Assembly: GCA_002071085.1 (NCBI GenBank)
Contig: MWEM01000010.1
Location: 2,047 to 66,046 of the forward strand
Length of the DNA: 64,000 nucleotides
From: Thermotogota bacterium ADurb.Bin062
Lineage (GTDB): Bacteria > Thermotogota > Thermotogae > MWEM01
Direction of reading: 5' to 3'
The translations under genes were made by a program, and so were the position numbers. Every line of letters starts with the position of its first letter. Within the stretch, counting starts at the first letter, position 1. The notes beneath the pieces were generated by a model. That model searched no databases. It was given only the letters and a program-made list of their open reading frames with translations, and was not told where the DNA came from. This document shows, piece by piece, positions 30,139-30,691 of the stretch.

Positions 30139-30691
30139 GTGTGGGTCAAGTTATGGGGTGCGCTCAAGAAACAATGTCAGAATCGTCCGTACGATTTTAA
30201 GTTCTTGTAGTCATCGCGGCGTAAGCGCTTCTTCTTCTCGCGACGGCGCGATACCCTTTTGCATATATTTTGAAACACAGGGTTCGCACAGAGGGCACAG
30301 AGAACACAGAGAAAAGACTGGAGAAAACTCGTGGGGCCGACTTCCAGTCGGCCTGTCTCTCTGGAAAGGCTCTGGGAACGCCAACTTTTAAGTTGGCGGA
30401 TTTTTCGCGGAGTCGTAAACTACGCTTAACACGTGATGAACCTTGTAGTTATTACGTCGTAGGCGTTTAAGGGTTCTCGGAAGCTTCCAGAAAAACAAAA
30501 ACCATGCCGAACTAAAGTTCGGCGTTCCCAGAGGAGCATTTCCAAAACAGCAAAACCTCGAACCATGCCGAACTAAAGTTCAGCGTTCCCAGGGCGGATC
30601 ACAAGAATAAAAGGCGGACCGCGGGGTCGAAAAAACCACATACCCTGCGATGAACCTCTGAGTTATGCCACCTCATAACTTTGACCCGCAC
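30139..30691. mobile_element. MITE-like non-coding element (~550 bp) bounded by ~22-bp terminal inverted repeats GTGTGGGTCAAGTTATGGGGTG ... CACCTCATAACTTTGACCCGCAC. Its interior is built from the small hairpin repeat modules.
   Basis: The left end at 30139-30160 and the right end at 30669-30691 are reverse complements (about 19 of 22 bases). There is no ORF inside. The first ~115 bp are nearly identical to 55215-55331. Confidence 0.7.

Follow-up and report, generated by a model that had tools for sequence, protein, structure and literature searches.

A family of miniature inverted-repeat elements with tips at a fixed distance from extended -10 promoters in an uncultured Thermotogota lineage

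Introduction

Two intergenic regions in a 64-kb stretch of DNA from an uncultured anaerobic-digester Thermotogota bacterium (the whole stretch is referred to below as the window) are occupied by repeat-rich elements with inverted termini. The questions raised by these loci were what kind of element is present, what moved it, and what relation it bears to the genes on either side. An earlier note, made from the letters of the window, had described the elements as MITE-like and non-autonomous. Here, the elements were mapped in the window, compared with related copies in metagenome contigs of the same lineage, and positioned relative to the neighbouring promoters.

Sequence sources and motif scans

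The window was scanned for the motif GTGTGGGTCAAGYTATGGGGTG allowing up to 3 mismatches, and shuffled sequences were used as the null. Two window proteins, used in an exact-sequence look-up, recur on contigs of many anaerobic-digester metagenomes and in several MAGs labelled Thermotogota by NCBI. A scan of metagenome contigs with the terminal inverted repeat (TIR) pattern returned 116 loci, and contigs of the same lineage gave at least 25 distinct complete elements of 212 to 1217 bp. Orthologues and paralogues were removed by clustering of flanks at 70% identity, giving 84 independent ends.

The same pattern scan of species-representative genomes returned 72 loci. These were rejected as chance matches, being nearly all single and spread over unrelated taxa; the sole loci with several matches were tandem repeats in an unrelated Ignavibacteria MAG. 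A scan of viral contigs gave no matches, and no Rfam family matched in the window. A literature search found no description of the TIR element or of MITEs that target promoter edges.

Complete copies and solo ends in the window

Five matches to the motif were found in the window, where shuffles gave an expectation of 0.00. A sixth copy forms the right end of copy A and differs by a 1-nt insertion and a few mismatches. The elements, their modules and the adjoining promoters and genes were as follows (for the five scan matches the strand is that of the match).

29110-30066, - strand: left neighbour of copy A, with a weak, sub-threshold DHHA1-domain match
30105-30113, - strand: extended -10 box TGGTATAAT, 25 nt past the left TIR tip of copy A; promoter of 29110-30066
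30139-30691: copy A, complete element of 553 bp (left arm, nested modules, right arm)
30139-30160, motif match on the + strand: left TIR of copy A, CACCCCATAACTTGACCCACAC when read outward on the - strand, 0 mismatches
30207-30258, + strand: M2 hairpin module, TCATCGCGGCGTAAGCGC...CGCGACGGCGCGATAC, belonging to the 212-bp core
30273-30321, + strand: M3 module, GGGTTCGCACAGAGGGCACAGAGAACACAGAG, nested and outside the minimal core
30371-30404, + strand: M1 palindromic module, GGGAACGCCAACTTTTAAGTTGGCG plus a T-rich tail, terminator-like
30503-30537 and 30564-30598, - strand: further M1 copies
30669-30691, + strand: right TIR of copy A, CACCTCATAACTTTGACCCGCAC, with the 1-nt insertion
30718-30726, + strand: extended -10 box TGGTACAAT, 26 nt past the right TIR tip of copy A; promoter of 30800-34123
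30800-34123, + strand: right neighbour of copy A, divergent from the left one; PAS histidine kinase/response regulator
41330-41827: repeat cluster with a solo right-arm end
41806-41827, motif match on the - strand: TIR of this cluster, tip rightward
41857-41865, + strand: extended -10 box TGGTATAAT, 29 nt past the TIR tip; promoter of the thioredoxin-like gene 41883-42611 (+)
47968-48475: repeat cluster with a solo left-arm end
48454-48475, motif match on the - strand: TIR of this cluster, tip rightward
48501-48509, + strand: extended -10 box TGCTATAAT, 25 nt past the TIR tip; promoter of the LD-carboxypeptidase gene 48706-49743 (+)
52726-54984, - strand: left neighbour of copy B, MCP
55215-55688: copy B, complete element of 474 bp
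55215-55236, motif match on the + strand, and 55667-55688, motif match on the - strand: TIRs of copy B
55715-55723, + strand: extended -10 box TGGTATACT, 26 nt past the right TIR tip of copy B; methylase promoter
55824-56936, + strand: right neighbour of copy B, D12 adenine methylase

Copies A and B are both bounded by inverted copies of GTGTGGGTCAAGYTATGGGGTG, in agreement with the earlier note, which had listed two complete copies with TIRs of about 22 bp. The left ~260 bp and right ~70 bp of the two copies could be aligned at roughly 88-94% identity and their middles are unrelated. A shared left arm had been claimed and is present; it extends beyond the ~115 bp given there, to ~260 bp at ~88-94% identity. 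The copies, said to have no ORF, contain spurious ones only, and their interiors, like the other intergenic clusters of the window, are mosaics of a few shared palindromic modules; the claim that they are filled with such modules was confirmed by identification of the same module families. Two right-end-like sequences had also been proposed. That at about 41790-41825 is of the right-arm type, and that at about 48440-48465 proved to be an inverted left arm, with an inward module order that matches copies A and B. Comparison of the 29 long ORFs with Pfam returned no transposase domain, in line with the earlier note, which had stated that the window has no transposase. Every assembly examined shows the same arrangement of genes and the same intergenic distances in the region of the window copies, and a search for presence or absence of copies A and B among near-clonal assemblies revealed no difference between strains.

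The M1 module comprises a GC-rich 7-8-bp stem, a 4-nt loop and a T-rich tail, and M1 sites at 30379-30398 (+), 30506-30523 (-) and elsewhere (e.g. 47968-48001) score like intrinsic terminators. In copy A the M1 modules face inward from both sides, and the cluster could act as an insulator of the divergent genes against read-through. The leader of ~190 nt (48510-48705) between the TIR-adjacent promoter and the start of the LD-carboxypeptidase gene is unusually long; it had no Rfam match at the gathering threshold.

Architecture of the element family

Alignment of the short elements defined a core of 212 bp, consisting of an L arm, one ATCGCG/CGCGAT hairpin module (M2), an R-arm hairpin and the inverted TIR. 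The core ranges over 212-277 bp and encodes nothing. The TIR is 22 bp long with the tip ...CATAACTTGACCCACAC; its core CCATA.CTTGAC is nearly invariant across the 84 ends and the TTGAC within it is fully conserved. Each genuine TIR match bears one of two conserved inner arms, either the L arm (the TIR followed by TAATCAAGAAACAAGGCCAGAATCG...) or the R arm (...TTACCCCGCGATGAACCTCTTAGTTATGT followed by the TIR). These arms are conserved over at least 45 nt and the TIR was never seen without them. When the core was folded as single-stranded DNA the TIRs paired with each other (z = -7.8). The tetranucleotide G/A-T-A/G-G is often found 5' of the M2 hairpin.

Longer elements, both window copies included, hold extra modules (M1, M3 and others). 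At one locus with identical flanks the TIRs are separated by 713, 945 or 1217 bp according to assembly, the extra DNA consisting of tandem arrays of M2-M3-type units. At another orthologous locus there is, depending on strain, either a complete 363-bp element or ~910 bp of modules with no right TIR. The only long ORF, of 394 aa and spanning the 1217-bp element (L154), was considered as a transposase and rejected, being a read-through of tandemly repeated modules. An invertible switch was likewise rejected: none of 54 flank clusters, each represented in at least two assemblies, shows both arm types.

Mosaic clusters with no TIR were also recorded in the window at 23650-24100, 25440-25800, 27510-27950, 39500-40000, 44300-44800 and 49760-50020. 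Each of them is in an intergenic region with a gene start and none is flanked by convergent genes, the opposite of the usual 3'-end bias of REPs.

Mobility and the likely type of mobiliser

Perfect 8-bp direct repeats were found at the borders of 3 of 25 complete elements (GAAACACC, GGATTCCT and GAGGTTGA), and one further element of the 25 has a 6/8 duplication. In a sister species (L210) one element is flanked by 7/8 of an 8-bp duplication (TGATTACT/TGATTACC). About 21 of the 25 complete elements, copies A and B among them, have no target duplication.

Filled and empty sites were compared at two positions. When the element at L141 was removed together with one copy of the duplication, the remaining sequence was colinear with the corresponding intergenic region of L207 and L208, two sister species that have no element there and whose neighbouring AllG-like protein is 83-84% identical. 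At the AsnA promoter the site is filled in L210 and empty in the window, L212 and L215. L210, whose AsnA is 82% identical, has two short elements, one of 142 bp (9756-9897) and one of 188 bp (19980-20167), both with the same TIR, an unrelated interior and no M1-M3 modules. A single transposase specificity thus seems to be shared by MITE bodies that differ between related species. Neither TIRs nor modules are present in L205, the closest of the more distant relatives (RtcB 68% identical).

Because of the 8-bp duplications at some of the elements and the two orthologous empty sites in sister species, the family is a true MITE, that is, multi-copy, non-coding, TIR-bounded, mobile and non-autonomous. 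The MITE-like reading of the earlier note is thus supported: the termini are conserved in 84 independent ends with unrelated flanks, target duplications of 8 bp border a minority of elements (perfect in 3 of 25 elements, 7/8 in L210), and filled sites have empty counterparts (L141 against L207/L208; L210 against the window, L212 and L215).

The note had named a RAYT- or IS200/IS605-type transposase as the likely mobiliser, and this suggestion was not upheld. HUH enzymes such as these act on elements without TIRs or target duplications, while TIRs combined with an 8-bp duplication are the signature of a DDE-type transposase. On the strength of the 22-bp TIRs and the 8-bp duplications, the mobiliser is most likely a DDE-type transposase supplied in trans. 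Neither a transposase nor an autonomous element with matching TIRs was found in the window, the 116 loci or the viral contigs, and no RAYT/Y1 HUH gene was found in the window or the retrieved loci. Multi-copy protein families near the elements comprised LRR proteins, MCPs, FGE-sulfatase-domain proteins, ABC transporter components, AAA ATPases and one family with no Pfam match. No DDE or HUH transposase was present among them; the label 'transposase' occurred only on Rpn-like PD-(D/E)XK proteins.

Fixed spacing of TIR tips and extended -10 boxes

The main feature of the family, which the earlier note had overlooked, is a fixed distance of 25-26 nt between the TIR tip and an extended -10 promoter. 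A match of at least 7/8 to TGNTATAAT (TGnTATAAT) starts 24-26 nt past the tip in 40 of the 84 independent ends, against ~0.1 expected. The exact spacing is 25 nt in 20 ends and 26 nt in 19. Another 36 ends have no TGNTATAAT match within 60 nt, and the remaining 8 have one at some other distance. In 28 of the 40 promoter-adjacent ends a Shine-Dalgarno sequence and an open frame follow 15-186 nt further on. Within the window, five of the six TIR tips have a gene-facing extended -10 box 25-29 nt outward, TGNTATAAT occurs 12 times against 0.43 expected, and about a third of the extended -10 promoters bear a TIR. Among the complete elements, those with two, one and no promoter-adjacent tips number 6, 11 and 8, which fits random assortment.

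Apart from the TRTG of the extended -10, the sequence of the 25-nt spacer is not conserved, and it contains no -35 hexamer. A -35 box is mostly missing from promoters without a TIR as well. Distances were likewise collected for M1 (n ~430), M2 (~180) and M3 (~100). These modules gave no distance peak and rarely had a -10 box near them; it is thus the TIR in particular that is coupled to promoters, and repeats in general do not pile up there. Space-filling, in which repeats accumulate against a promoter boundary, was rejected, as the distances of the other modules are broad and those of the TIR almost tail-free. A classical hybrid promoter with the TIR TTGAC as its -35 box was also rejected. 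TTGAC lies 33-34 nt from TATAAT, too far for a -35 box, and nothing resembling a -10 box is found at 17 nt.

The two filled sites allowed the order of events to be considered. At L141 the TGATATACT promoter downstream of the element is also found in L207 and L208. The AsnA promoter, TGGTATAATACCG.AATTTT, is common to the window, L212, L215 and L210, and in L210, the only one with a TIR element, the tip lies 26 nt from the TG. Both L210 elements keep the 25/26-nt spacing. Because the orthologues without an element keep the promoter, the promoters are older than the insertions. In these two cases, therefore, the promoters are ancestral, and the element came to its 25-26-nt position, neither bringing nor creating the -10 box.

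Proposed insertion at the promoter edge

In our judgement, insertion was probably aimed at the upstream edge (-41) of promoters of the extended -10 type, and REP-like modules nested or amplified inside the elements later, the whole being a MITE family with a DDE-type mobiliser. This explanation is held with moderate confidence. It is preferred because two young insertions and both sister-species copies lie at 25-26 nt, the distances are nearly tailless, and the TIR is not measurably better conserved at promoters than elsewhere. Two of five or six duplication-bearing, and hence young, insertions sit exactly at 25-26 nt; the corresponding P of ~0.003 is an estimate that assumes ~1.5% per random intergenic insertion. 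Several observations run counter to this explanation. Of the three insertions with perfect duplications in the focal species, two are located within repeat clusters away from promoters, so that any targeting would not be absolute, and the absence of duplications in ~21 of 25 elements is not predicted by simple cut-and-paste. Inspection of the flanks for a target consensus revealed none, and no cognate transposase was found in the window, the 116 loci or the viral contigs. Selection might also produce this pattern if the TIR, with its fully conserved TTGAC, works as an upstream promoter element.

In the proposed mechanism, a transposase acting in trans would move the ~212-bp element and duplicate 8 bp of target. 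New copies would preferentially insert so that a tip lies 25-26 nt upstream from the TG in TGnTATAAT, at about -41, which would correspond to the upstream edge of the region that RNA polymerase needs. The core promoter and gene would stay intact and the element would rest in a safe, untranscribed spot. The position might be set by promoter-bound RNA polymerase/sigma or by the DNA of the -10 box. The duplications may be stripped later, when copies recombine with each other or undergo intramolecular transposition (adjacent deletion or inversion), and the same reshuffling might yield promoters at both tips in divergent intergenic regions such as that of copy A. REP-like modules (M1, M3 and others) would then nest or amplify in tandem, and the window copies may have reached 474 and 553 bp by this route.

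A more specific form of this proposal is offered tentatively, as a possibility in which we have less than even confidence. Integration might be steered to the promoter upstream edge (about -41) by promoter-bound RNA polymerase/sigma, or by direct reading of the -10 over 25-26 bp, which would make the system a prokaryotic counterpart of Ty3/Ty1/Tf1. The upstream regions of perhaps a third of promoters in the lineage would have been re-tiled in this way, creating landing pads for more repeats.

Alternative explanations

The same MITE family might instead insert near-randomly, with selection keeping the 25-26-nt class. The TIR, at -41 to -62, would then be a portable upstream promoter element that binds, for example, an activator, the transposase or a domesticated relative, and many promoters would be wired into one regulatory set. 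The near-invariance of CCATA.CTTGAC in the 84 ends, the presence of a TIR at about a third of window extended -10 promoters and the lack of a -35 box at TIR-adjacent promoters are all consistent with such a role, as is the location of two of the three perfect-duplication insertions away from promoters. The 22-bp asymmetric site is centred near -51.5, which we take to be a possible class I activator position by analogy with MarA/SoxS-type promoters. However, a -35 box is missing from TIR-less promoters as well, and the TIR thus shows no sign of making up for its absence; TTGAC is too distant from TATAAT (33-34 nt) to serve as one itself. Conservation of the TIRs at promoters does not significantly exceed that of TIRs elsewhere (P = 0.14 and 0.22), and the TIR was always found together with its arms. 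Random insertion would place ~1% of copies in a 2-3-nt window, yet half of the ends, two young insertions and both sister-species copies are found there. We regard selection on random insertions as rather unlikely, although it is the alternative with the most in its favour.

The other alternatives concern the nature of the repeat and its mobiliser. If the clusters were REP/BIME-type mosaics moved by a RAYT (an HUH tyrosine transposase), the 22-bp inverted repeat would be one more palindromic module. Clusters built from 30-50-bp palindromic modules do resemble E. coli BIMEs, the G/A-T-A/G-G tetranucleotide often precedes the M2 hairpin, and both Kosmotoga olearia and Mesotoga prima are reported to have CGTC-type REPs (PMC3733652). 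REPs are mostly located at gene 3' ends (PMC3733652), whereas the window clusters lie upstream of genes. The two distinct asymmetric arms, the true 22-bp TIRs and the 8-bp duplications do not fit HUH/RAYT chemistry, and no Y1 transposase was found in the window or the loci; this origin is accordingly considered very improbable for the family as a whole, and the small internal palindromic modules could nevertheless be REP-like. Least credible of all is an immobile operator or upstream element that looks like a TIR pair where divergent promoters face apart. The tips in the window do always point to genes, with a -10 box at 25-29 nt in five of six, but the 8-bp duplications and the empty orthologous sites that already have the promoter contradict it. 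Some ends abut repeat modules or truncated genes, the conserved arms of at least 45 nt are obligatory, and ~40% of ends have no promoter. The PD-(D/E)XK 'transposase' genes (Rpn/YhgA-like, PF04754 and PF12784) were considered as mobilisers or co-travellers in a composite or translocatable mode of spread, with the following stretches between facing TIR tips (PF04754 + DUF4351, one PF12784; nucleotide identity ~88-90%).

L101: 7252-9876
L104: 8768-10895
L163: 353-2984
L109: 4857-5591

At three or more distinct loci, ~88-90%-identical genes are arranged in the order R-arm TIR, 26 nt, -10 box, gene, 45 nt, inverted L-arm TIR, and a PF12784 gene is present in another TIR-bounded stretch. The TIR tips point to the gene, however, and the gene is thus outside the elements; unrelated families (MCPs, LRR proteins, ATPases) are equally multi-copy beside elements. 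Rpn proteins are recombination-promoting nucleases, and we know of none that makes TIR-defined insertions with 8-bp duplications. A role in mobilisation or composite spread is therefore given little credence; the PD-(D/E)XK genes may have spread by recombination between flanking MITEs. Insertion directed to the promoter edge remains the explanation that we prefer.

Comparison with known systems

Correia elements of Neisseria (CREE/NEMIS) are similarly high-copy intergenic bacterial MITEs, with TIRs of ~26 bp and outward promoter signals that affect neighbours; Siddique, Buisine and Chalmers reportedly described in 2011 an influence on neighbouring genes through such outward-facing signals. They differ in carrying their own -35 and -10 boxes inside the element and in duplicating TA, whereas the -10 box of the present family is ancestral host sequence situated 25-26 nt beyond the tip, 8 bp are duplicated and no canonical promoter is supplied. 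Hybrid promoters of insertion sequences (IS1, IS2, IS256/257, ISAba1) likewise place an outward TTGAC, near the inverted-repeat tip, beside a resident -10 box. They need a spacing of 16-18 nt; in the present family it is fixed at 33-34 nt and the promoter was an extended -10 promoter before insertion.

Enterobacterial BIMEs/REP clusters and the BOX elements of Streptococcus pneumoniae are also mosaic intergenic clusters of a few short palindromic module types, whose number varies between strains. REPs in BIMEs are short imperfect palindromes with a GTAG/CGTC head. Unlike the clusters described here, which either sit within a TIR element or terminate in one and are located upstream of promoters, REP/BIME clusters have no TIRs or target duplications, are RAYT-linked and occur mostly at gene 3' ends.

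Tn7 (TnsD at attTn7) and the yeast elements Ty3, Ty1 and Tf1 integrate at a set distance from a protein-bound landmark, at a safe site that spares genes. In those systems the targeting proteins have been identified and one or a few classes of site are used, whereas targeting in the TIR family is deduced from positions. We know of no bacterial transposon or MITE for which the upstream edge of ordinary sigma-70-type promoters serves as the target. To our knowledge this is a new MITE family, and its sharp 25-26-nt registration with pre-existing extended -10 promoters is undescribed for bacterial MITEs.

Other features of the window

A defence island occupies 5593-23484 (- strand). It encodes a 1562-aa Type IIG restriction-methylase/DrmMI-like protein, an SNF2 DrmD-like helicase that is divided over the ORFs 12501-13118 and 10291-12504, a 671-aa protein in which a 171-nt repeat occurs seven times in tandem, a DruE-like (Druantia) helicase of 1598 aa with an MZB domain (PADLOC E = 1e-170) and an 1182-aa protein with no database matches.

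Two adjacent paralogous Walker-A ATPase-like genes (24139-25440 and 25723-27507) had no Pfam or PADLOC match. They belong to a multi-copy family with nine more ORFs in eight fetched loci, sharing a promoter and leader TGCTATAATCTTTCCAAACA..., and each is flanked by repeat clusters. A HigB/Gp49-like toxin and HTH antitoxin pair at 43585-44207 (- strand) adjoins the repeat cluster at 44300-44800, with PadR-DUF2812 downstream; these domain names were taken from the gene tables of matching loci.

Significance

MITEs are common, and we know of no family in bacteria with tips at a single-nucleotide-sharp distance from -10 boxes. If the distance reflects targeting, it would represent a new principle of target selection, with the promoter edge as a safe haven, which could be exploited for promoter-proximal DNA insertion. 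If it reflects selection, the family would clearly exemplify, in bacteria, the spread of a transposon end over many promoters as a cis-regulatory module. In practice, the TIR tip plus 25 nt marks the -10 box and can serve as a promoter marker in an uncultured organism. Under either cause, the elements account for the bloated, fast-changing upstream regions in this Thermotogota lineage.
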